Of a stretch of 50,119 nucleotides of DNA, positions 435-49,501 are shown piece by piece. The stretch is from Chiloscyllium plagiosum (lineage: Eukaryota). Position numbers and translations under genes: made by a program. Each line of letters starts with the position of its first letter. Within the stretch, counting starts at the first letter, position 1. Under the pieces are notes generated by a model. It was not told where the DNA came from. It worked only from the letters and a program-made list of their open reading frames with translations, and searched no databases. The stretch covers positions 13,726,267 through 13,776,385 of the forward strand of contig NC_057751.1 of the NCBI RefSeq assembly GCF_004010195.1, written 5' to 3'.

Positions 435-634
435 GTTTAGATCAGAGTGGTGCTGGAAAAGCACAGCAGGTCAGGCAGCATCCAAGGAGCAGGAAAATCG
501 ACGTTTCGGGCAATAGCTTTTGCCAGAAACGTTGATTTTCCTGCTCCTCGGATGCTGCCAGACCTGCTGTGCTTTTCCAGCATCGCTCTGATCTAAACTC
601 TGGTTTCCAGCATCCGCAGTCCTCACTTTTGCCT
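435..634 (+). mobile_element. Fold-back (inverted) Penelope-like element terminus, family A
   Basis: Arms ~435-513 and ~520-598 are reverse complements. They are followed by the family 3' end CCAGCATCCGCAGTCCTCACTTTTGCC. Flanks TGCAGCTTTCTGGAT (420-434) and TGCAGCTTCTGGAT (635-648) form a near-perfect TSD. The same sequence follows the GIY-YIG ORF at 41468-42037. Confidence 0.85.
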
Positions 635-7849: not shown

Positions 7850-8710
7850 GTTTGACAATGCCTTGCATCTGTATACTGATGATCGAGAGTAGACTAAGGG
7901 TTGGAGGGGATCAACTGGCTGCATTCGATTTCTCCTGCTTTGTGTGGACAGGACATACCTAGTAAATTTTCCACATCGTCAGGTAGATGTGCAGTATCGA
8001 TTATGGGTGAATACAACTCTGCTGATGGTGGATGTCTGGTATTGAGTTGCTGGATCAGTTTGAAATCTATCCCATGAGCATCGTGATAGTGCAACATTAC
8101 GTATCATCCTTGATATGAAGATGGAACTGTGACTCCACAAGGACTGTGCAATGGTCACTCCTGCCAACCACCATTGTGGGCAGATGTATCTGTAGATTGG
8201 TCAGGATGAGATCAAGTCAATTTTTGGCTCGGCAAAAGTGAGGACCGCAGGTACTGGAAACCAGAGTCTCGATTAGAGTGGTGCTGGAAAAGCACAGCAG
8301 GTCAGGCAGCATCCGAAGAGCAGGAAAATCGACATTACGGGCAAAAGCCCTTCATCAGGAGCTCCATTCCAGATGAAGGACTTTTGCCCGTAATGTCAAT
8401 TTTCCTGCTCCTTGGTTGCTGCCTGACCTGCTGTGCTTTTCCAGCACCACTCTAATCTAGACTCTGGTTTCCAGTATCTGCAGTCCTCACTTTTGCCTCA
8501 CTTTTTTCCAGCACCACTCTAATCCAGATTCAAGTAGATTTTTCCCTGTTGTTGGTTCCCTCACCACATGCTGCAGACCCAGGCTTGCACTATAGAATTG
8601 ATCAGCTTGGTCAGTAGTGATGTTATTGAGCCACTGTCTATGTTGGACAATGCAGTCCCTCACCCAAACAACATTCTGTGTCTGTGCCACACTCAGTGCT
8701 TCCTCCATAA
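7850..8710 (-). mobile_element. Second non-LTR LINE family, endonuclease-region fragment, interrupted by a PLE fold-back
   Basis: Minus ORF HRQWLNNITTDQAD...LGLQHVVREPTTGKNLL resembles the APE-endonuclease C-terminal block (xxQxVxEPTRGxNxLDL). The sequence continues on the other side of 8231-8530. Confidence 0.7.
8231..8530. mobile_element. Fold-back PLE terminus, family A, two ~130-bp arms plus an extra partial copy
   Basis: 8231-8360 is the reverse complement of ~8368-8497; TTCCAGCACCACTCTAATC is repeated again at ~8506-8524. Confidence 0.9.
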
Positions 8711-8994: not shown

Positions 8995-9400
8995 TCAGCA
9001 ACAAAAACAGAAACTGCTGGAAAAGCTCAACAGATGTGGAGAGAAAGCAGAGCCAATGCTTTCAGTCCAGCACTGTTGACCTGGGTTTGATTCCCACCTC
9101 AGGCAAGGGTCTGTGTGGAGTTTGCACATTCTCCCCGTGTCTGCATGGGTTTCCTCCGGGTGCTCCGATTTCCTCCCACAGTCCCAAGATGTGCTGGTCG
9201 GGTGAATTGGCCACGCTAAATTGCCCGCAGTGTTAGGTGCATTAGTCAGGTTTAAATATAGGGTACGGGAATGGGCCTGGGTGAGTTGCTCTTCGGAGGG
9301 TCAGTGTGGACTTGTGGCCCGTCTCCATACTGTAGGGAATATAACCTAATCTAAACAGATGCTACCAACCTCCCGAGCTCCTCCAGCAATCTCTGCCTTT
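8995..9400. mobile_element. Degenerate fold-back terminus (probable third PLE family) split by an HE1 SINE
   Basis: ACAGAAACTGCTGGAAAAGCTC (9007-9028) is roughly complementary to GAGCTCCTCCAGCAATCTCTG (9374-9394). Related pieces lie at 24490-24570 and 35085-35172. Confidence 0.55.
9078..9353 (+). mobile_element. HE1-type V-SINE, 5'-truncated
   Basis: B box GGGTTTGATTCC, V-domain and 3' tail all match 5960-6270. Confidence 0.9.
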
Positions 9401-9824
9401 CCTTTGTTTCAAATGGTACTTTCCACCAATTTTGGCTTTTATTTCACTCATTTTAGAACTGGCAACTTTTGAGTTAGCATACCAGAAAGAGTCAGGATAC
9501 TGCTCTCCATGAATAACTGATCAGACAAGTGAAGAGCACCATACCTGCCACAACCTATTCCATGCAGGTAAGAGGGATGTCACCAAAAAGCTGAAAAAAG
9601 GGAGAAATAGGGAAGTATTTATACTAGGCTGAGAGAAGGTGAGTCATGGCTCCAGACACAAAGGTAGCAATAAAGAGGTGATAATGACAGTGCATAGAGA
9701 GATTATAGGGAGATTAGGAGCTGTCGAGGAGAAAGTGAGGTCTGCAGATGCTGGAGATCAAAGTTGAAACTTTATTGCTGGAACAGCACAGCAGGTCAGG
9801 CAGCATCCAGGGAACAGGAGTTTC

Positions 9825-9852
9825 GACGTTTCGGGCACAGGCCCTTCTTCAG
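9825..9852 (-). ncRNA. Minimal type I hammerhead ribozyme core
   Basis: CUGAAGA-A-GGGC(CUGU)GCCC-GAAA-CG-UC; flanking UUC/GAA can form a short stem I. Confidence 0.75.
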
Positions 9853-9862
9853 GAAGAAGGGC

Positions 9863-9890
9863 CTGAAGAAGGGCCTGTGCCCGAAACGTC
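9863..9890 (+). ncRNA. Minimal type I hammerhead ribozyme core (mirror copy)
   Basis: CUGAAGA-A-GGGC(CUGU)GCCC-GAAA-CG-UC; the stem I 5' strand is mostly lost at the fold. Confidence 0.7.
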
Positions 9891-10132
9891 GAATCTCCTG
9901 TTCCCTGGATGCTGCCTGACCTGCTGTGCTGTTCCAGCAATAAAGTTTCAACAGATTAGGAGCTGTGAATGACCAAGGCTGAAACCAGTGCTATGTGACA
10001 AAATATGTTGGGGATGGGGGGGATGGGTGAAGCAGAGGCAAAATGGAAAACAGGGGAGAAGGGTAGCAAAGGGGGAAGAGCAGGAGTTTATCAGAGCTGA
10101 AAAATGTGTTGCTGGAAATTATAACAGTCCAT

Positions 10133-10305
10133 CTTCCACAGCTACACTGGCACCACCCCCCAACTTTCCCTCCACTACATCGATGACTGTATCGGCGCTA
10201 CCTCGTGCTCTCACGAGGAGGTTGAACAGTTCATCCACTTCACTAACACCTTCAACCCCGACCTCAAATTTACCTGGACTGTCTCAGACTCCTCCCTCCC
10301 CTTCA
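10133..10305 (+). pseudogene. PLE reverse transcriptase fragment
   Basis: Reads FHSYTGTTPQLSLHYIDDCIGATSCSHEEVEQFIHFTNTFNPDLKFTWTVSDSSLPF: the YIDD catalytic motif followed by the (H)PxLKFT...LPFL block typical of Penelope/Poseidon RTs. Confidence 0.88.
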
Positions 10306-15920: not shown

Positions 15921-17059
15921 TTTAGCAACATTTAAACATGGAGGTCTATGTTGTCATGAGTTTATAAGTGTCCCTGACAGACTGGAGTTTCTGGCATGTG
16001 ATGTACCACATTTGGAACAGGAAATTCCAAGGATTTGCACCGCAGAATTTACACTATGATGCTATATTCGGGGTTGTGTTTATCTCTTCATTATCATCTT
16101 GTACATTCATCCTGTTGAACAAGCAGGCAAAACTGTAATTTCCAATTAAAGCCAAGTGCTAAAACACACTGTATAATGACACAAGTGAGGGAGGAGAGTG
16201 CTGCAGATCTCACAGGGCATCATCTCATTAGCCTAGAAATTACTGTTAGCAATGTGGATGGATGAACACTTAATGAGTTTGTGTGGCATTCCCCTTGTCT
16301 GTTTTTCCAATGGTGGTGTTAACCTATTCAAAACAAACGAGGTAGTGCTTGTGTTCACATTGTCAACAAAAGAATGCCAGCAACACATTAAGCATTTGCC
16401 TGAAATTGTAACTTCCAGTGAGCTGTAACACCTGATAAAGGTCAGGCCATTTATCCTGTTTGCTTTCATTTTCATGTGAGGTTGTACCGCAAAAAAAAAC
16501 TGAATGGTTCTACAGCAATTAGTGAAGCTTTAGAATGTTGGTCAATCTTTTGTCACCAAGAGGTGAGGATCAGCGAGTTGAGCAGGAAGGGAAGTGTTTT
16601 TTAATTTTTAAAAAAATAACCCAAGGAACATTTCAGCCTTAACAAAAGATAAGTTTGCTGCTTGTGCATTGTTTGTAATTTTTTTTCAAGGCAATTATTC
16701 ATTATACAACGTGGTACTTGCTTCTCTAAACTGATTAATTGAAAACCACTTTGATTAGTTTATGATGCCTCCAGAGGATAATGGTGGTGAATTCCATTAC
16801 ACAGAGATGTTGCTAAATAGAGAAATGTTACACTCTCCTGGATTAAGAAGCATAACATGGTCTGCTTGTGAGGGAGCCGGAAACAAGTTGAAAGGCAAGC
16901 TTTCACTGCCTCCAAACATTTTCCTAGTCCACATGTTCAGACAAACATTTCTGGAGCAGATAAGACATGAACCTGGCCTCCTGTCTGAACCTCAGAAGTA
17001 TGAACCCTTCCACTGTACCACACCAATTGGATCAGTGGTGAATTGAATACAGATACTTC

Positions 17060-17189
17060 TTGATTAAGGGCTTTTTGCCAGAAACGTCGATTTTCCTGCT
17101 CCTGGTGTGCTGCCTGACCTGCTGAGCTTTTCCAGCGCCACTCTAATCTTGATTCTAATCTCCAGCACCTGCAGTCCCCACTTCTGCCC
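17060..17189 (+). mobile_element. Single-arm PLE terminus, family A, beginning at a decayed hammerhead core
   Basis: TTGATTAAGGGCTTTTTGCCAGAAACGTCGATTTTCCTGCTCC...CTGCAGTCCCCACTTCTGCC. Confidence 0.85.
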
Positions 17190-17719
17190 ACTTTGTTGTT
17201 TGACAGCATCAGTACTTCAGATGAATCACTCGACTGATACCTCCATACATCGAAGGAGGAAGGACACTGTCATAAATCCCATGGTGATTGATTTCTAGCA
17301 GCAGTGGATATCTTGGTCATAGATACCTCTCCTTGAGCCGGGACTGAGAGACTGAGGAAAGGACAAAACGCCATACATTTCTATTAAGATTTTGTTCCAA
17401 ATATTGGCACAGAAACGTTGGGGAAAGAGGCAGTTTTAAAGTAAAGGTTCATCATGGTTCATTCCGGTTTATTCCTTCAATTTTGGGAAGTGCAGTTCTG
17501 TTGAATAGCCGATTTAAAATCTTAGCACATTGAAAATGCTAACCTTTCACTGTTCCACTGAAGAAATGCTGCTCAAGGCTTTGCTAGAGATTATAATGTT
17601 CTTTATTTGTTTTTATGGTGCAGTTTTAATCGTTCTTGACCTTCTGTTGAGTGGGGTGCCTTTAAAAAGATTTGTACATGAGTAGGCAAAGATGATTAAT
17701 AGGAAGCTAATTGAAGAGC

Positions 17720-21084: not shown

Positions 21085-22380
21085 ACCCTTGTGCAGTTTG
21101 CTGGTCCAGCATTCATTATCCATCCTGTCACTTTTGATAAGGCGGTGGTGAGCTGCCTTCTTGAACCACTGTAATCCATCTGGTGTAGGTGCACCCACCA
21201 TGCAATTAGAAAGGAAATTCCACAATTTTGACCCAGCAATAGTGAAGGAATGGATAGCGAACGTCGATTTCACAAGTTTCTTCATCTCCCTCCTCCCATC
21301 GCATCCCAGAACCAACCCTCCAACTCAACACCACCCTCTTGACCTGTCCTACCTGTCCATCTTCCTTCCCACCTATCCGCTCTACCCTCCCCTCCGACTT
21401 ATCACCATCACCCCCCCACCTGTATCTATCTATCGCCTTCCCAGCTACCTTCCCACCAGCCCCACCCCCACCTTCCTAATTATCTCTCAGCTCCCCCCCC
21501 ATCCCACATTCCTGATGAAGGGGTTATGCCTGAAATGTTGACTCTCCTGCTCTTCCAGTGCTGCCTGACCTGCTGTGCTTTTCCAGTGCCACACTTTCAA
21601 CTCTCATCTCTCGCATCTGCAGTCCTCACATTCTCCGGATATATTTCCACACCAAGTTGACACGTGACTTGGAGGGAACCTTGTAGGTAGTGGTATTCTT
21701 ATGTATGCGCTGCTCTCACCTTTCTCAATAGTACTGGTCATAGGTTTGGAAAATGCTGTCTACAGATCTTTGGTGAATTTCTGCAGTGCATCTTGAAGAT
21801 AGTACTGAGTGCTGCTATTGAGTGCGGTGGTGGAGGGCGTGAATATTTGTGGATATTGGTCAATCAAGCAGCCTGCTTGATGGTATCAAGCTACTTGTGT
21901 TGCTGGATCCAAGGAAGTGGGGAATATACCATTACACGCCTGACTCGTGCCTTGTAGATGGTGGACGGGCTTTGAAGAGTCAGGAGGTGAGTTACTCATT
22001 GCAGTATTCCTAGTCTCTGACTTGCTCTTGTAGGCACCATATTCTTATGGCTTATCCAGTTCTGGTCAGTGGGGTATTGATAGTGTGTGGGGGGGGGGGG
22101 GGGGAAGAGGTGGGATTCAGCAACAGTGACGCCTTGAATTTTGAGGGATGATGGTTAAATTCTCTCCTCTTGTAGATGGTCATTTCCTATCACTTCTGTG
22201 GTATAAATATTATGCCACTTGTCAGCCCAGACCTGGATATTGTCCACTTCTTGCCATTTTTGACATAATCAGTATCTGAGGAGTCATGAACGGTGTTGAC
22301 CATTTGTGCAATTATTAATGAACAGCCCAGGTTACTGCTAAAGCAGCTAAAGATGTTTGGGTTGAGGACAACACCAGGTT
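21085..22380 (-). mobile_element. Second LINE family 3' region, interrupted by a PLE
   Basis: ORF piece SFTIAGSKLWNFLSN..VGAPTPDGLQWFKKAAHHRL; colinear with 41030-42560. Confidence 0.8.
21257..21636 (+). mobile_element. PLE 3' fragment (end of endonuclease ORF plus terminus), family A
   Basis: NVDFTSFFIS, C-rich UTR, decayed core CTGATGA-A-GGGGTTATGCCT-GAAA-TG-TT at 21512-21539. Possible 5-bp TSD GGATA (21252-21256 and 21637-21641). Confidence 0.87.
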
Positions 22381-23030: not shown

Positions 23031-24929
23031 TCTCTGTGGAACAATGGATCCAGTCCAAAGAATCTTGAGTTTAATGACAACAATCAACAGTAATTTGTGT
23101 TTCCGTGGTGCTCTTGACAAAGTGAAACCCCCAAGGCACTATCAAACAGAATTTACATAAGAGAGCAATCCCAAATACTGTTGTGAACAAAGAGTTTTAA
23201 GGATTATTTTGAATCATAAAATCACAGATCCCTACGGTATGGAAGTAGGCTATTCGGCCCATAGAGTCCATGCATGAACTTGGACATATTTGACAGTAGC
23301 CATGTAGACTCTCGGTGTCAACATGCCTGACAGCTGAAATCAAGTGAACCATAACTCCTCTTCAGCCCTCAGAAAGCTGCATTGATCTTCAACAAGCTGC
23401 ACTTCAGCAGAGAAGTTAAAAATGGAATGTGGCGAAGCAGAGGAAGGAATTGTAGAAACATTGGTCACAGAAGTGATGACTCCACTCAGAATTCAGCCAC
23501 GTCTCACTTACTGATCCAAAGTTAGTACCTGACATACTGACTCCTCTCTCGATTCCCAAGTTTTCCTTTCTGTAGACAAGTAGCGAAGACTTTGATAGGG
23601 CCCTTGTGGTTATTGGCCAAGGGTACCTCAGCAGCCAGAAGACCTCTGAGAGCCGCCTTCTCTCACTGAAATCATAGTCTGCACCATGTGGGAGAAGGAA
23701 GGGAAAGACAAGGCTATTGAGACAAAGGTGTCCATTTGGCTGTGTGAGAAAAAGTTTTGTCATCAGGTTTTAGCCAGTTAAATAACCTTTATTAGTTTGT
23801 ACCAGTCTCAGATTGCTTTCTGGGTTGCTGAGTGGTAACTCAACTTTTCAGTTGCTTGTCAATGAACAGAAGTAGTAAATTGATGACAACAGATGTTCAG
23901 TGGTCAGTTGGTTCGCTCCAAGATGCTTTATAACAATGGATTGACAATTTGAAGGGAGGGTGGATAGTGAAAGTGGCTGTTTCTGCTGGTGGTCATGTTC
24001 CTCTGAGATTTAAGGGAGCCAAGGCATATCACACATTGAGCCTCAATTCCTCCAAAATTAACCTTTTACCACCTGTGCTGTGAACTCTCCATTTTGCAGA
24101 GGAAGGTAAGAAAGCAGTTGTGAGCAGTAACAACTTATTGCTGCATTCATCTGGTGAACTCAATGAATTACCATTCTCTTCCAGAAAATGACTTGTCGTC
24201 TGTCTATTATCTACAAAGAATAAGTTACTTTGAAAAATTCTTCTGTCTTGAATGTATTGGCTGGCCTACAACAGTCATGTGACCTCTACCTGTTCTGAAA
24301 CTTGCTTTCAATTTTTGTTTTTTAGCAGCCACTATTTGAAACATAGTCTCAGAAGTCTGTAGCTGAGATTGAGTAAGTAAACTTTCAGAGCTGTAAGAGA
24401 ACTGGCGACTGCATTAAAATAGTAAAGGAAGAACTAAAATCACCGTTTATAACCATGAATCAAAATTAGTGCGAATTTTCAACCACAGCAATAACAGAAG
24501 TTGCTGGAAAAGCTCAGCAGATCTGGCCGCATCTGTGAAGAGAAATCAAAGTTAATGTTTCTGGTCCTATCACCCATCCTTGGAACTGATGGTAGCTTGG
24601 AAAATGTCAGTAATATGAAGCATATTGCAAAGTCAGCCCCGAAGAGCTCTTTCTAACTCATTCTTGAAAATATTGAAAGTTTTCTATTTATGTCAATACA
24701 TGACCCCCCCAATCCCATGCACTTTAATTTTACATGCTTATCTCTTTGTGAGACCTTATCAAAAGCCTTCTGAAAATGCAATTAACCACACTGGATTTGT
24801 GAACAACCAAGCTTTTGCCTAATTTGTCATCAGACCGTGAACTTCTTCACTAGCTCATGGTTCAGGATAAGCAGTCACATTGGGAATGAAATGTAATCCA
24901 GCCAGTGACAGTCATGCCAGACCCAGGAA

Positions 24930-25215: not shown

Positions 25216-25467
25216 CAAGAAACTCTGCTTTTATTGTGGGAAATAGATCAGAAAGATATCATTTCATTGCAAGTGTAGAGACTGGGAGTGCAACTGACTA
25301 GAGTTGACAGTTTTTTAACTGAATGAGAAATTTTCTTTGTGACCACGTATGTTGGATAACTTGCATAACAATGCATGCACTGACATTTGTAACTTAATTT
25401 CTTTGGTATTTTTATGAAAATGAGCTATTTAGAGAAATGCAATTGTCCCCTTTAGTATACTCCCTTA

Positions 25468-25890
25468 CCACCCGACGCCTGGAGGAAGAACGCTTCATCT
25501 TCCGCCTCGGAACCCTTCAACCTTAGGGCATCAATGTGGACTTCACCAGTTTCCCCATTTCCCCTCCCCTCCCTCCCCCCCCACCTTATCCCAGTTCCAA
25601 CCTTCTAGTTTAGGACCATCCTCATGATCTGTCCAACCTGTCAATCTTCCTTCCCATCTATCCGCTCCACCCTCCTCTCTGACCTATCACCTTCATCCTC
25701 ACCTCCATCCACCTATTGCACTCTCAGCTACCTTCTCCCCAGGCCCACCCATCCTCCCATTTATCTCTCCCAGTCTAATCCCTGATGAAGGGCTTTGAAA
25801 CGTTGATTTTCCTGTTTTACAGATGCTGCTTTTCCAGCACCACTCTAATCTTGACTCTAATCTCCAGCATCTGCAGCACCCGCGTTTGCC
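25468..25890 (+). mobile_element. PLE 3' fragment, family A
   Basis: TRRLEEERFIFRLGTLQP*GINVDFTSF; hammerhead core at 25782 with stem II half deleted. Confidence 0.9.
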
Positions 25891-27942: not shown

Positions 27943-28692
27943 TTTTCAGACTGGAGGCCTGTGGCCAGTGGAGTGTCACAAGGATCAGTACTGTGTCCAC
28001 TACTTTTCATCATTTATATAAATTATTTGAATGTGATCATAAGAGGTATAGTTAGTAAGTTTGCAGATGACACCAAAATTGGAGGTGTAGTTGACAGCGA
28101 AAGAGGTTACCTCTGATTACAATGGGATCGTGATCAGATGGGCCAATAGGCTGAGGAGTGGCAGATGGAGTTTAACTTAGATAAATGTGAGGTGCTTCAT
28201 TTTGGGAAAGCAAATCTTAGCAGGACTTATACACTTAATGGTAAGGTCCGAGGGAGTGTTGCTGAACAAACAGACCTTGGAGTGCAGGTTCATAGCTCCT
28301 TGAAAGTGGAGTCGCAGGTAGATAGGATAGTGATGAAGGCATTTAGTATGCTTTCCTTTATTGGTCAGAGTATTGAGTACAGGAGTTGGGAGGTCATGTT
28401 GTGGCTGTACAGGACATTGGTTAGGCTGCTGTTGGAATATTGCTTGCAATTCTGGTCTCCTTCCTATCGGAAAGGTGTTGTGAAACTTGAAAGGGTTCAG
28501 AAAAGATTTACAGGGATGTTGCCAGGGTTGGAGGATTTGAGTTATCGGGAGAGGTTGGATAGGCTGGGGCCGTTTTCCCTGGAGTGATGGAGGCTGAGGG
28601 GTGACCTTAAAGAGGTTTATAAAATCATGGGCATGGATAGGATAAATAGACAAAGTCTTTTCCCTGGGGTGGGGGAGTCCAGAACTAAAGGG
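27943..28692 (+). mobile_element. CR1/HER1 RT fragment lacking its 3' tail
   Basis: FSDWRPV...KFADDTKIGG...MEFNLDKCEVLHFGK...LERVQKRFTGML...ESRTKG, with stops and frameshifts. Confidence 0.95.
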
Positions 28693-31410
28693 TATCAGTC
28701 CTGCTAAGATTTGCTTTTCCAAAATGCAGCACCTCACTTTTATCTGAATTAAACTCCATCTGCCACTCCTCAGCCCATTGGCCCATCTGATCAATACTCC
28801 GTTGTACTCCAAGGTAATCATTTTCACTGTCCACTACACCTCCAATTTTGATGTCATCTGCAAACTTACAAACTGTACCTCCTATGTTCACATCCAAATC
28901 ATTTATATAAATAATGAAAAGTAGTGGACCCAATACTAATCCTTGGCACTTCACTGGTCACAGGCCTCCAGTCTGAAAAGCAACCCTCCACCACCACCCT
29001 CTGTCTTCTACCTTTGAGCCAGTTCTGTATCCAAATGGCTAGTTCTCCCTGTATTCCTTGAGATCTAACCTTGCTAACCAGTCTCCCATGGGGAACCTTG
29101 TTGAACGCCTTACTGAAGTCCATATAAATCATGTCCACAAGCGCTGCCCTGATCAATCCTCTTCATTACTTCAAAAACTTCAATCAAGTTTGTGAGCCAT
29201 GATTTCCCACGCACAAAGCCATGTTGACTATCCCTAATCAGTCCTTGCCTTTCCAAATACATGTAAATCCTGTCCACAGGATTCCCTGGAACAACTTGCC
29301 CACCACCGACATCAGGCTCATTGATCCATAGTTCCCTGGCTTTTCCTTACCACGTTTTTAAAACAGTGGCACCACGTTAGCCAATCTTCAGTCTTCTGGC
29401 ATCTCACCTGTGACTATCCATGATACAAATATCTCAGCAAGGGGCCGAGTAATCACTTCCTTAGCTTCCCACAGAGTTCTCGGGTACACCTGATCAGGTC
29501 CTGGGGATTTATCCACGTTTATGCATTTTATGAATCCAGCACAATACTTCTGTAATATGGACATTTTTCAAGATGTCACCATCTATTTCCCTATATTCTG
29601 TATCTTCCATGTCCTTCTCCACAGTAAACACTGAAGCAAAATACTTGTTAGTATCTCCCCCTCTCCTCTGGCTCCACACAAAGGCTGCCTTGTTGATCTT
29701 TGAGGGGTCCTATTCTCTCCCTAGTTACTCTTTTGTCCTGAATAAATCCGTTTGGATTCTCCTTAACCCTGTTTGTCAAAGTTATCTCATGTCCCCTTTT
29801 TGCCCTCCTGAATTCCCTCTTAAGTATACTCCTACTGCCTTTATACTCTTGCAAGGATTCACTCGATCTCTGCTGTCTGTACCTGACATTTGCTTCCTCC
29901 TTGTTCTTGACTAAAACCTCAATTTGTCTCGTCATTCAGTGTGCCCTACACCTACCAGCCTTACCTTTTGCCCTAACAGGAACATACTGTCTCTGGACTC
30001 GCATTATCTCATTTTTGAAGGCTTCCCTTTACCTGCAAGCATTAGCACCGTGTCAACTTTTGAAAGTTCTTGGCTAATACCGTCAAATTGTCCTTCCTCC
30101 AAGTTAGAACTTAAACCAGTCTATCCTTTCCCATCACTATTTTAAAACTAATAGAATTATGGTTGCTGGCCCCAAAATGCACCCCCACTAACATCTCAGT
30201 TACTTGCCCTGCTTTATTTAGAGTCATGAGTCCTACAGCACAGAGACAGGCCCTTTGGCCCAAACTGGTTCATGTTGACCAAAGGCATAGTCCGACAGTG
30301 ACCAAAATGTCCATCCACACTAACCCCATTTCCCTGCATTGGCCCATATCCTTCTAATCCTTTCTGATCTATGCCTTTTAAATGTTGTTAATGTCCCTGC
30401 CTCAACCACTTTTGCTGGCAGCTCATTCCATATGCATACCACCCTCTGTAAAAAAAAAAAAAATGTTGCCCCTCAAGTTTCCTTTTGTTCTTTCCCCTCT
30501 AACCTTAAACTGATGCCCTCTAGTCCTTAATTTCTCAACTCTGGGAAAAAGACTGAGTGCACTCATCCTATCCATTCCACTCATGATCTTCTATACTACT
30601 GTAAGATCTCCCCTCGGTCTTCTACGCTCTAAACAAAAACATCCCAGCTTGTCCAACCTCTCCCTATAACTCATTGAGTCCAGGCAACATCCTTGGAAAT
30701 TTCTTTGCACTCTTTCCAGTTTAATAACATCCTTCCTATTGGCAAGGCAACCAGCACTGAACGCAATACTGCAAGTGCAGCCTCACCAATGTCCTGTACA
30801 ACTGCAACAAAACTTCCCAACTTCTCTACTCAGTGTTCTGACTGAAGGCCAGTGTGCTAAAAGCCTTCTTCACTGCCCTGTCTATCTGTGACTCCACTTT
30901 CAGAGAACTGTGCACCTGAACTCCCAGATCCCTCTGTTCCACTACCTTACCATTCACAATGAAACTCTGCCTTGATTTGACTTTCCAAAAGTAAGACCTC
31001 ACACCTATCCATATTAAACTCCATTTGCCATTTCTGGGCCCATTTTCCCAACTGATCAAGATCCTGCTACAACTTCTGATAAGCTTCCTCACTGTCCATG
31101 ATACCGCCTATTTTAGTGTCATTTCCAAAGAAGGGGTCAAGTTTTGCAACTTCTCTCGACGGTGCATCCACATACTGAATCAGAAAATTTTCTTGTACAC
31201 ACTTAACAAATTCCTCTCCATCGAGACCCTTAACACTATGGCAGTTCCAGTCTTTGTTTGGAAAGTTAAAATCCCATAACCACCCCATTATTCTTAAAAA
31301 TTTGTTTCTGAATTTCCCTCTGACTACTGGGGTGTCCAGAGTACAGTCCCAATAATGTGATCATCCCTTTATTATTTCTCAGTTCCACCTAAATAACCTT
31401 CCTGGGCATA
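28693..31410 (-). mobile_element. CR1/HER1 ORF2 fragment (endonuclease to RT), interrupted by a nested CR1
   Basis: DFNFPNKDW...QYVDAPSREVAKLD, VDMIYMDFSKAFNKVPHGRL, VLGPLLFIIYINDL, KFADDIKIGG. Confidence 0.95.
30220..31120 (-). mobile_element. Nested 5'-truncated CR1 with 3' tail
   Basis: 3' tail at 30220-30290 and RT DTKIGGIMDSEE at ~31085-31120. The host frame LDPFFGN|KAGQVTE resumes across it, and ATTT occurs at both junctions. Confidence 0.88.
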
Positions 31411-34400: not shown

Positions 34401-35183
34401 ACAATTCAAATTATCCACTCGATTTTTACTTGCAATCACAATATTCTGCATGGAGCACAATAGGGATAACTGATCTATTGGAAGTGCTCTGCCAAGCAAA
34501 AGAGCTGGGTCAAAGTTGAATTCATATGGTTTGGCTGGATAGATGGTCTTCAGTTTTGATGAGAAGTAGTTGAACACATTACAAGTTTCTCAATGGACAT
34601 CTCAATTTGCTCTTCTCCATTCACTGTAACCTGAGTGACAATGACAAATTAGGAGAAAGTTTTACAGTTCTCTGCTGTGCTCATCACTTTACATTTGTGT
34701 AAAAGAAACAACACGAGACATCTATAAGTTTTCCTCGAAGATTCCACGGGGCAGCATTCTGTCAAACAGATCAGATAGTGCAACTGAGCATTGTATTCCC
34801 TGTCTGTGTTCAAATCACAGCTGAATTATCTCCACTAATCTGGTTCCTTGGAATTATTTAATCATTTTGCAAAATCAGGAATGACTATCCTTTAGAAAGT
34901 TCATTGTTATGATCAATGTGGTGTCACTGCTCTGAGTGGGGATTATGAAAGAGAAAAATATTAGTGTGAGCTGCAGCTGAAATAGAGAGAAAACTGATGC
35001 AGGAGCGGTCATGCCTGTTAATTTAGTTGGTTTCACATAAACCATGGTTATGTTTTGAACAAATGTTCACCTGAGTGTAGGTTTTGAGGAACCCGGATGC
35101 TAAATGTTAACTCTGATTTCTGTTCACAGATGCTGCCAGACCTGCTGAACTTTTTCAGCAATTTCTGTTTCTGTCACTGAGTA

Positions 35184-35401
35184 CAGTCTATTCGGATATA
35201 ACACGATAGTTCATTTCTGTACGATCCACATTATAAGAAAATCACGTAATAGCAGCACCATTTAAACTAACGGGACTGGAATTGCGTTATAGCCAATACA
35301 GGTAAGGGAAGTTTACATTCTCCAAATAATGGTCTAAATTCTTCAATTGTGTTATAGCTAATTCGTGTTGAAAAAAATGCACATTATAGCAGAACCGACT
35401 G
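35184..35401. mobile_element. Tigger-like MITE
   Basis: TA-CAGTCTATTCGGATATAA vs TTATAGCAGAACCGACTG (imperfect TIR); right flank is GA rather than TA. Confidence 0.72.
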
Positions 35402-41029: not shown

Positions 41030-42850
41030 ATATGTGGGATGTGGATAGCACTGGCTGCACCAGACTTCATTACCCATTCTTAGTTGTTGTTCGGAAAGAG
41101 GTGATGAGCTGCTTTCTTGAGCCATTACACTTGATGCACCCACCATGATGTCAGGGAGCGAATTCCAAGATTTTAACCCAAAACATGCAAGGATCAGCAA
41201 ATATATTTCCAAGTCAGGAAGGTGTGTAGCTGAGAGTGGAACTTTCAGGTGGTGGTCTTCCCATTAATGTCTCGCTCTTGGCTTTCCTGCTGGCGGTGGT
41301 TGTGAGTTTGGAGGGTGCTGTCTCAGAATCCTTTGTGAATTGCTGCCGTGCGTCTTGTCAATGGAACACACTGCGGCCACTGAACTTGCTGTTGGTGGAG
41401 GGAGTCAATGTTTGTGGAGACAGTGCCAGTCCACTGGGCTGCTTTGTCCTGGATGGTGTCAGGATTACTCATCTACATTGGGGAGACAGGACGCCCACTC
41501 ACAGAGTGCTTCAGAGAACATCTCCAGGACACCTGCACCAACCAGCCCCACAGCCCCATGGCCAAACATTTCAACTCCCCCTCCCACTCTGTCGAGGGCA
41601 TGCAGGTCCTGGGCCCCCTCCGTCGCCACTCCCTTAATATCCAACACCTGGAGGAAGAATGCCTCATCTTCCGCCTCGGAACGCTTCAACCCCAGGGCAT
41701 CAATGTGGAATTCACCAGTTTCCTCATTTCCCCTGTGCCCCCACTTTACCCCAGTTCCAAACTTTGAGCTCAGCACTGTCCTCCTGACCAGTCCAATCTG
41801 TCCATCTTCCTTCCCACCTATCCGCTCCACCATCCTCTCCGACCTATCACCTTCATCCCCACCTCCATCCACCTATCGCACTCTCAGCTACCTTCTCCCC
41901 AGCTCCACCAGCCTCATTCCTAATGAAGAGTTTTTGCCCGAAATATCGATTTTTCTGCTCCTTGGATGCTGCCTGACCTGCTGTACTTTTCCAGCACCAC
42001 ACTCTTGACTTCAGCATCTGCAGTCCTCACTTTCGCCTCAGGATTATTCAGTGTTGCACTCATCCAAGCAAGTAGGGAGTATATCATCACACTCCTGACT
42101 TGTGCCTTGTAGATTGTGGGAATGCTTTGAATTCAGGGGGTGAGTTACTCACGACAGGACTACTGTCCTCTGACCTGATCTTATATTTATAGTCACTGTC
42201 TTTATAAGGCTGTTTCAGTTCAATTTGCAGTCAATGGTAACCTCCACAATGTTGAAAGTGTGTGATTCAGTGATGATAATGCCATTGAATGTCAAGGACC
42301 AATGGTTAGCTTCTTTTTGATTGGAGATTGGCATTACTTGACATTTATTTGGGCACTGACGTTGTTTGTCACCTCTCAGCCAAAGCCTAGATATTGTCTG
42401 ATTCTTTTTGCATTTGGGAATGGTCTACTTCAGTATCTGAGGAGTCACAGATGGTGCTTAAAGTTGTGCAGTGATTGCCGAACGTCCCCACTTCTGACTG
42501 AAAGATGGAGGAAAGGTCATTGATGAAGCTGTTAAAGATGGTTGAGCGAAGAGACTACCGTGAGGAATACCAGATGATAGACCTCTGACCTCCATAACCA
42601 TTTTCCCTCATGGCAAACGTGACTCCAGCCAGGAAAGAGATTTCCTGCTGATTCCCATTTCCTCTTGCTTGGCCTTGCCACACTCGGTCAATAGCCTTTC
42701 TGTCCAAGGCAGTCGCTCTCACCACACCCCTGGAATTCAGCTCTTCTAACAAAGTTTAAAGCAGGCCGGAGGGAAGGTCAGGAGCTGAGTGAGCCTGGTG
42801 GAATCCAAACTGGATATCATTGAGCAGGTTATTGCTAAGCAAGCGCTACT
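41030..42850 (-). mobile_element. Second LINE family RT plus 3' end, interrupted by a PLE
   Basis: ELNSRGVVRATALDRKAIDRVWQG (LDxxxAFDRVW motif); 3' tail at 41030-41110. Confidence 0.82.
41468..42037 (+). mobile_element. 5'-truncated Penelope-like element (GIY-YIG C-terminus plus terminus) with 9-bp TSD
   Basis: LIYIGETGRPLTECFREH...AKHFNSPSH...LEEECLIFRLGTLQPQGIN. TSD TCAGGATTA at 41459-41467 and 42038-42046. Decayed hammerhead core at ~41920-41947. Confidence 0.95.
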
Positions 42851-49295: not shown

Positions 49296-49501
49296 CTGAA
49301 AAATGTGTTGCTGGAAAAGCACAGCAGGTCAGGCAGCATCCAAGGAGCAAGAGAATCGACGTTTCGGGCATAAGCCCTTCTTCAGGCTTATGCCGGAAAC
49401 GTCGATTCTCCTGCTACTTGGATGCTGCCTGACCTGCAGCGCTTTTTCAGCATCACATTTTTCAGCTCTGATCTCCAGCATCTGCAGTCCTCACTTTCTC
49501 C
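49296..49501 (+). mobile_element. Fold-back PLE terminus, family A, 14-bp TSD
   Basis: Arms 49296-~49377 and ~49385-49465; TSD TTGGAATCTCACCA at 49282-49295 and 49502-49515. Confidence 0.93.
49358..49385 (-). ncRNA. Minimal hammerhead core, family A
   Basis: CUGAAGA-A-GGGC(UUAU)GCCC-GAAA-CG-UC. Confidence 0.72.

Follow-up and report, generated by a model that had tools for sequence, protein, structure and literature searches.

Head-to-head end repeats of a Penelope-like element, with a clipped hammerhead core on each strand, in the Chiloscyllium plagiosum genome

Among the insertions described for Penelope-like elements (PLEs), an inverted, 5'-truncated copy together with a one-sided tail of 30-40 bp is typical (PMC8557442, PMC8969392), and palindromes are described at the junctions of the inverted ends (PMC3846280); how the tandem and inverted structures form is called undefined in PMC8557442. 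The minimal hammerhead ribozyme that PMC4209133 describes for PLEs has a CUGANGA core, an extra base before stem II, GAAA, a palindromic 15.2-16.2 element and no stable helix III. Pairs of these motifs are reported there on opposite strands, ~100-700 bp apart, and most occurrences as solo motifs from truncated PLEs, while the dimer requirement and low activity of minimal PLE hammerheads are reviewed in PMC6765202. In Drosophila Penelope, the promoter is described as internal and an intron of 75 bp as lying 46 bp past the start (PMC2377424); according to PMC4209133, the same intron extends up to the 5' end of helix I. For the Poseidon element of Anolis, PMC11167929 reports a protein, predicted to be a dimer, that cleaves and extends both target strands, uses uncleaved RNA and starts reverse transcription at two internal sites bracketing the tail. 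Retrozymes, finally, are described as repeats arranged head to tail that carry two or more hammerheads on the same strand and release unit-length RNA and circles (PMC7229834, 10.64898/2026.07.22.740005).

Here we consider a 228-bp insert at 9725-9952 of a 50,119-nt stretch of Chiloscyllium plagiosum DNA (NC_057751.1, 13,726,267-13,776,385; the window, to which all positions refer). It is one of four head-to-head hairpins in the window (H1 to H4, the insert being H3; Table 1), and we think it very probable that it is a dead-on-arrival PLE insertion, reduced to two end-repeat copies lying head to head. An earlier note, made from the same DNA, had described it as a hairpin with 91-bp arms and one mismatch, and so it is: its two arms (9763-9853 and 9862-9952) both measure 91 nt, disagree at a single position and are parted by an 8-nt spacer (9854-9861). 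The perfect 14-bp target duplication that had been claimed is equally borne out, since an exact direct repeat abuts both ends of the insert, and an exact 14-mer repeat at equivalent spacing (plus or minus 25) occurred at one of 993 window positions in a grid control, that one being the insert site. The insert had further been called non-coding, and among the stop-to-stop ORFs of at least 120 aa, the size class that was listed, none overlaps it. As RNA, the hairpin has a predicted folding energy of -200.5 kcal/mol (z -29, with none of 200 shuffles as good), and the opposite strand gives a z of -27.

Table 1. Positions of the insert's parts and of related end-repeat copies in the window
Feature	Position	Strand	Remarks
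Left target-site duplication	9711-9724	+	exact 14-bp match to 9953-9966
PLE tail, 38 nt, long arm only	9725-9762	-	aligns with tails found elsewhere in the window
Long arm: PLE end repeat (pLTR piece), sense on minus strand	9763-9855	-	begins 3 nt before hammerhead C3
Single arm mismatch	9821	.	long-arm allele rare in family; lies at position 1.4 of helix I
Minimal hammerhead core, minus strand	9825-9852	-	C3 9852, C17 9825; helix I 3 bp
Junction	9853-9876	+	turn with 2-nt spacer and 3-nt microhomology, then 12-nt tandem duplication and second 3-nt microhomology
Short arm: same PLE end repeat, sense on plus strand, tail-less	9862-9952	+	stops 90 nt past C3
Minimal hammerhead core, plus strand	9863-9890	+	C3 9863, C17 9890; helix I 1 bp
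Right target-site duplication	9953-9966	+	exact match to 9711-9724
H1, head-to-head hairpin	435-634	.	junction lies within stem II, without a spacer; short arm on the left and tail on the right
H2, head-to-head hairpin	8231-8499	.	tail on both arms; 7-nt spacer
H4, head-to-head hairpin	49296-49501	.	exact 14-bp duplication; arm reaching farthest 5' is tail-less
Solo end-repeat copy	~17057-17190		
Copy extending hundreds of bases 5' of hammerhead	25459-25890		
Copy extending hundreds of bases 5' of hammerhead	~21150-21636		
Copy extending hundreds of bases 5' of hammerhead	~41268-42039		
3' remnant of coding PLE	41429-42039	+	GIY-YIG fragment 41429-41764, pyrimidine-rich spacer, end repeat with tail 41919-42039

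The two arms are not equivalent. The 38 nt at 9725-9762 are unpaired and, by alignment to the tails of other window copies, correspond to the 3' tail of the PLE family on the minus strand; the minus-strand arm accordingly measures 128 nt from C3 with its tail included, and the plus-strand arm stops 90 nt after C3, so that each arm is a PLE end module of 90-128 nt. Public contigs, compared over 9200-9880 (left flank, long arm and junction) in four runs, X1, X5 and X14 among them, place the outer end of the family at ~9726-9729, where loose contig ends with unrelated flanks pile up in all four runs (315 contigs end at 9727 in X1, for example). At 9821 the alternative letter accounts for 1,959,997 of 1,963,314 depth units in X1. 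In the subfamily of the insert, a hexamer resembling a poly(A) signal lies at 9939-9944 of the plus strand and in the mirror position of the long arm, 77-82 nt after C3, and is absent from the other window copies.

The junction is more intricate than the simple 8-nt loop previously described. The spacer length was given correctly, but these 8 nt lie within a tandem duplication of 12 nt (9853-9864 and 9865-9876), and at its first turn the hairpin leaves only 2 nt between its arms. Read by eye, the path follows native repeat to 9855, switches through a 3-nt microhomology, continues for 9 more bases and then passes through a second 3-nt microhomology; public contigs likewise track the family sequence through 9855 and then diverge.

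On both strands the conserved core, stem II and the palindromic 15.2-16.2 element agree with the minimal form described in PMC4209133, and in this sense the earlier note was right to propose a hammerhead core on each strand, of the minimal type I with a palindromic stem III that is typical of PLEs. Helix I falls short of ~4-5 bp, offering one possible pair on the plus strand and three on the minus strand, because the insertion starts inside helix I. The scan with hammerhead models suggested in the note returned no hammerhead family from Rfam, either at E <=1 across the whole window or at E <=10 in two short stretches, and the hammerhead assignment thus rests on the motif match to the minimal form as PMC4209133 describes it. 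Matches to Rfam miRNA families were rejected as generic hairpin matches below gathering scores. Whichever strand is transcribed, the ribozyme comes after its own complement, and the predicted pairing probability of stem II is 0.0 in read-through RNA from both strands and at most 0.02 even in isolated arms. Judged from sequence and predicted folding, both hammerheads are clipped and buried within the long hairpin, which agrees with the suggestion that the hairpin sequesters its ribozymes. The description of the locus as a ribozyme-only insertion was correct as to the cores and overstated otherwise, for the arms are PLE end modules, one of them with a 38-bp tail, and neither core has a full helix I.

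The origin of these modules is indicated by the remnant at 41429-42039, where an end repeat ~76% identical to that of the insert follows a fragment of a GIY-YIG-like endonuclease (41429-41764). None of the five window ORFs searched matched Pfam, the endonuclease-like fragment included, and the identification comes instead from its relatives. The fragment has 729 relatives at E <=0.001; among the seven long ones that were scanned, all seven carry GIY-YIG and four have RVT_1 upstream of it. In a separate set, GIY-YIG was found in six of nine relatives, mostly weakly, with RVT_1 preceding GIY-YIG in the top match (P0003), and in the Atlas the fragment scores 0.94 to a GIY-YIG cluster in which 41% of members carry PF01541. 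A word-indexed homolog search gave two matches among 60 candidates, one of them a skate protein with an unrelated name, and was uninformative. The 50-kb window holds no full-length PLE copy, nor a reverse transcriptase and linker attached to the end repeat; nonetheless, the endonuclease remnant, together with its RVT_1- and GIY-YIG-bearing relatives, identifies the repeat as the end of an endonuclease-positive PLE, although the actual donor of the insert is not among the copies examined. By sequence, then, 9725-9952 consists of end repeats of such an element, truncated and inverted, and the PLE origin proposed in the earlier note is supported. On the minus strand at 10090-10118 lies a further piece of end repeat, beside a short reverse transcriptase-like fragment with a YIDD motif (~10170-10300, plus strand).

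The other copies in the window provide a frame in which H3 can be read. The tail is one-sided in three of the four hairpins and two-sided in H2, and the tail-less arms of H1, H3 and H4 all stop at the same homologous base (90 nt after C3 in both H3 and H4). Spacers range from 0 nt in H1 to 7-8 nt in H2 and H4. In H4 the tail-less arm reaches the base before C3, and the tailed arm turns inside stem II. H1 is flanked by a duplication of ~15 bp with one gap; for H2 a target duplication was not clearly found. At least three subfamilies are represented among the four hairpins (aligned to the long arm of H3, 59-65 of 79-82 columns match), yet within each hairpin both arms belong to one subfamily. 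The three 5'-extended copies showed no detectable inverted end, and in the two of them that were searched no clear target duplication was found. Several further observations concern the surroundings of these copies. Directly after H2, at 8500-8531, lies an extra end-repeat piece of 28-32 nt in the same direction as the right arm of H2, perhaps a short extra template switch, and a weak 14-bp duplication with two mismatches at H2 would include it. The pieces at 24440-24620 (minus strand) and 35060-35260 (plus strand) are diverged, share the central part of the end repeat and probably represent an older related family. An inverted duplication of ~1 kb at 27943-28979 has 258-nt arms at 88% and ORFs on both strands, which lack a Pfam match and which we take to resemble the reverse-transcriptase end of a LINE.

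Two lines of evidence speak to the age and the site of the insertion. Arm mismatches number 1 in 91 in H3 as against 7/82, 9/130 and 7/81 in the other three hairpins, and this single mismatch, taken with the perfect target duplication, makes H3 the youngest of the four and supports the earlier reading of a recent insertion. A contig from organism B runs from left flank to sequence like the right flank with no insert between, matching 25 of 30 letters by eye; the orthologous flank agrees better, with 15 differences in 329. Because the flanking sequence is itself repetitive and the match is this low, the contig shows an uninterrupted form of the flanking repeat rather than orthology. This target repeat occupies 9587-9724 and 9967-10075, reaches depths of 15,000-70,000 over 9591-9705, has a pyrimidine-rich minus strand and a TATA-like box, and may represent the 3' part of a different PLE family.

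Could the hairpin be a product of something other than a retroelement? An origin as a MITE (a miniature DNA transposon), or from fold-back reads wrongly assembled, would be the least probable of the explanations that we have weighed, and we give it very little credence. The insert is short, non-coding and built as a long inverted repeat with a target duplication, and no contig among the rows listed bridges its own flank junction, all of which would speak for such an origin. On its left side, however, the insert ends in the 38-nt unpaired tail and not in the inverted repeat, whose sequence is a retroelement end that also occurs solo and 3' of the endonuclease remnant; nor would an artefact be expected to yield exact 14-bp duplications at two independent hairpins, or an uninterrupted flanking repeat in organism B.

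A more substantive question is whether the hairpin is a by-product of PLE integration or, as the earlier note had alternatively proposed, a self-propagating, retrozyme-like unit, in this case a mobile non-autonomous element transcribed and re-inserted whole by PLE proteins. Its clean target duplication and the PLE end sequence at both of its ends would suit a mobile unit, as would the argument in 10.64898/2026.07.22.740005 that non-LTR retrozymes derive from pLTRs. The PLE family itself is clearly very large: summed contig depth, which is not copy number, is 1-7 million over the arm as against 8.3 for unique flank in X1. Just beyond the junction, in bin 9867-9880, depth falls to 1584 (X1), 593 (X5) and 39 (X14), set against 2.9, 3.2 and 0.9 million in arm bin 9821-9843, so that the junction side holds 0.05%, 0.02% and 0.004% of the arm's summed contig depth (again not copy number) and under 0.2% throughout. 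With so tiny a share, the H3 junction is not the common form. Depth beside the junction nevertheless stands above that of unique flank (190x in X1, 20x in X5), a point in favour of mobility, and on these figures a small set of loci may share a similar junction. The poly(A) single-cell RNA run X21, of which ~2% was read, yielded 1542 reads on 9200-9880, 98 in 100 of them running into other sequence; in that ~2%, from a library type that misses circles, there were no reads in bin 9867-9880 and no pile of starts or ends, and so small a sample bears on neither expression nor cleavage.

The earlier note had suggested asking whether copies share a fold point, and among the hairpins of the window they do not: the junctions differ in four of four, a comparison weakened by the spread of these hairpins over at least three subfamilies. 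These four differing junctions and the low junction-side depth argue for a by-product rather than a retrozyme. Mobility is further opposed by the lack of head-to-tail repeats, with a single core per strand, and by the clipped helix I and absent stem II pairing predicted for read-through RNA; by analogy with the Anolis element, moreover, whose template needs RNA 3' of the start site (PMC11167929), a copy ending at the tail would lack part of what it needs. We therefore regard a mobile unit as very improbable and the insert as an integration by-product of a very high-copy PLE, not a retrozyme.

How such a by-product is made is a separate question, to which H3 alone does not dictate the answer, being compatible with either the folding back of one cDNA or the joining of two. 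Overall, and with a confidence only a little better than even, we favour priming at both nicks followed by microhomology joining of two cDNAs. This preference follows from the templating limits of H4, from the spacerless junction of H1 and from the fact that both target 3' ends continue as end-repeat antisense, the one starting at the tail end, the other at the inner end. Consider the steps that would be involved. The GIY-YIG nuclease of the PLE would nick both target strands, 14 bp apart, and both nicked 3' ends would prime reverse transcription on PLE RNA; from the top strand it would begin at the outer start site, which gives the tail, and from the bottom strand at the inner one. Each cDNA would extend for only ~90-130 nt, to the front edge of an uncleaved hammerhead, because the template RNA probably begins there. 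Since antisense cDNAs could pair only at short self-complementary spots, one 3' end would anneal through 2-3 nt inside the hammerhead; in H3 the annealed 3' end would have slipped once, duplicating 12 nt, and fill-in would then yield the palindrome and the target duplication. The anatomy, the polarity of both arms, the common end points, the differing junctions and the clipped helix I are all observed here. Nicking and extension of both strands, and the two start sites, are carried over from another PLE studied in vitro, the sites of reverse transcription in our element being assigned by analogy with Anolis Poseidon. We infer that these steps co-occur at one site, along with the 5' end of the RNA and the joining step.

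The published reading is different, and the earlier note, too, had spoken of a fold-back. Self-priming at junction palindromes is proposed in PMC3846280 and nuclease resolution giving the tail in PMC8557442; applied here, one cDNA (or antisense RNA) would fold back and prime itself near the hammerhead, after which the PLE nuclease or a template jump would fix the second end at the inner site. H3 by itself fits such a course, its tail-bearing arm reaching farthest 5', the spacers of 7-8 nt in H2 and H4 suit a loop, and arms that always belong to one subfamily are what a fold-back predicts, whereas this last observation counts against joining two cDNAs. The difficulty is H4. A first-strand fold-back cannot make the tail and a second-strand fold-back cannot make sequence that was not copied, so that two cDNAs are called for unless the spacer was flipped later, and the fold-back needs just such a flip. 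Nor do the 0-nt spacer of H1 and the 2-nt first turn of H3 sit easily with a snap-back loop, and the inner end matches, by analogy, a start site of reverse transcription reported for Anolis (PMC11167929). Against two-cDNA joining, in turn, it must be said that the case rests on four hairpins, that the decisive one, H4, is a single copy, and that the same picture would arise if its spacer had flipped at a later time between the inverted arms; the contig rows listed also show no accumulation of loose ends at 9763, the inner site. On balance we consider the fold-back unlikely, though a serious contender, and as a mechanism it stands as one of two readings, fitted by H3 and disfavoured by H4 and H1.

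Where the template RNA begins bears on two-nick priming as well. Among nine short arms, six keep 1-5 native bases before C3 and three have their start within stem II; since no arm begins at the cut site, a 5' end set by ribozyme cleavage was rejected. These arm starts are most simply explained by transcription beginning just before the core, with stalling of the reverse transcriptase or a splice junction as alternatives. One native copy has TCATTCC at the helix I 5' strand, a motif which we take to be initiator-like. A more specific proposal, in which a protein dimer primes both nicks and joins the cDNAs through the hammerhead palindromes, on template RNA that begins at the helix I 5' strand, seems to us plausible, and we hold it tentatively, with somewhat less than even confidence.

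In itself, a single locus of this kind carries little weight, being one among very many end stubs of a known retroelement class. The junctions of H3 nonetheless hint at how PLE inverted ends are made, and the hairpin population offers a test both of that process and of where the template RNA starts. If the model of a dimer and two cDNAs is true, ORF-less hairpins constitute a large natural record of the RNA 5' end and of the joining step. If, furthermore, the density of four near-perfect palindromes of 90-130 bp per 50 kb holds genome-wide, they could be a large source of dsRNA and of DNA hairpins. In the open-access literature we found no paper that states two-cDNA joining as a model for PLEs, and none on ORF-less PLE hairpins of such kind in sharks.

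Among the systems described, inverted-pLTR PLE insertions are the closest to H3, sharing with it a head-to-head 5' copy, a tail of 30-40 bp at one end and a palindrome or overlap at the junction (PMC3846280, PMC8557442, PMC2377424). A target duplication is likewise common to both, at 8-10 bp in the rotifer examples given in these sources and 14 bp here; they differ in that H3 has neither an ORF nor a direct repeat between its inverted ends, and in that four hairpins occur within 50 kb. The minimal hammerheads of metazoan PLE terminal repeats (PMC4209133) are matched in core, stem II and palindromic 15.2-16.2 element. They differ in helix I, which is 4-5 bp in the Schistosoma families treated there and 1 and 3 bp in H3, and the paired motifs of that source differ also in arrangement, the cores of H3 lying ~10 nt apart and its stem II being 4 bp. 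Like the Poseidon element PAc of Anolis carolinensis, H3 has its hammerhead at the front of the end module, keeps the uncleaved ribozyme on insertion and has two end points ~35-40 nt apart, ~90-130 nt downstream (PMC11167929); the PAc data reported there come from one protein in vitro and reach as far as the extension of both strands, and the likeness to H3 is drawn from layout. With non-LTR retrozymes H3 has in common that it is small, non-coding and pLTR-related, with a type I hammerhead and a duplication of more than 4 bp (PMC7229834, 10.64898/2026.07.22.740005). It departs from them in being head-to-head, with a single clipped core on either strand that follows its own complement. In the twin priming of LINE-1, both target nicks prime cDNA, and the two cDNAs join by microhomology to give an inversion; there, two different parts of the RNA are copied, whereas the arms of H3 copy the same segment and so form a palindrome. 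In this context, H3 is the ORF-less extreme of a known type of PLE insertion, the inverted end plus tail.
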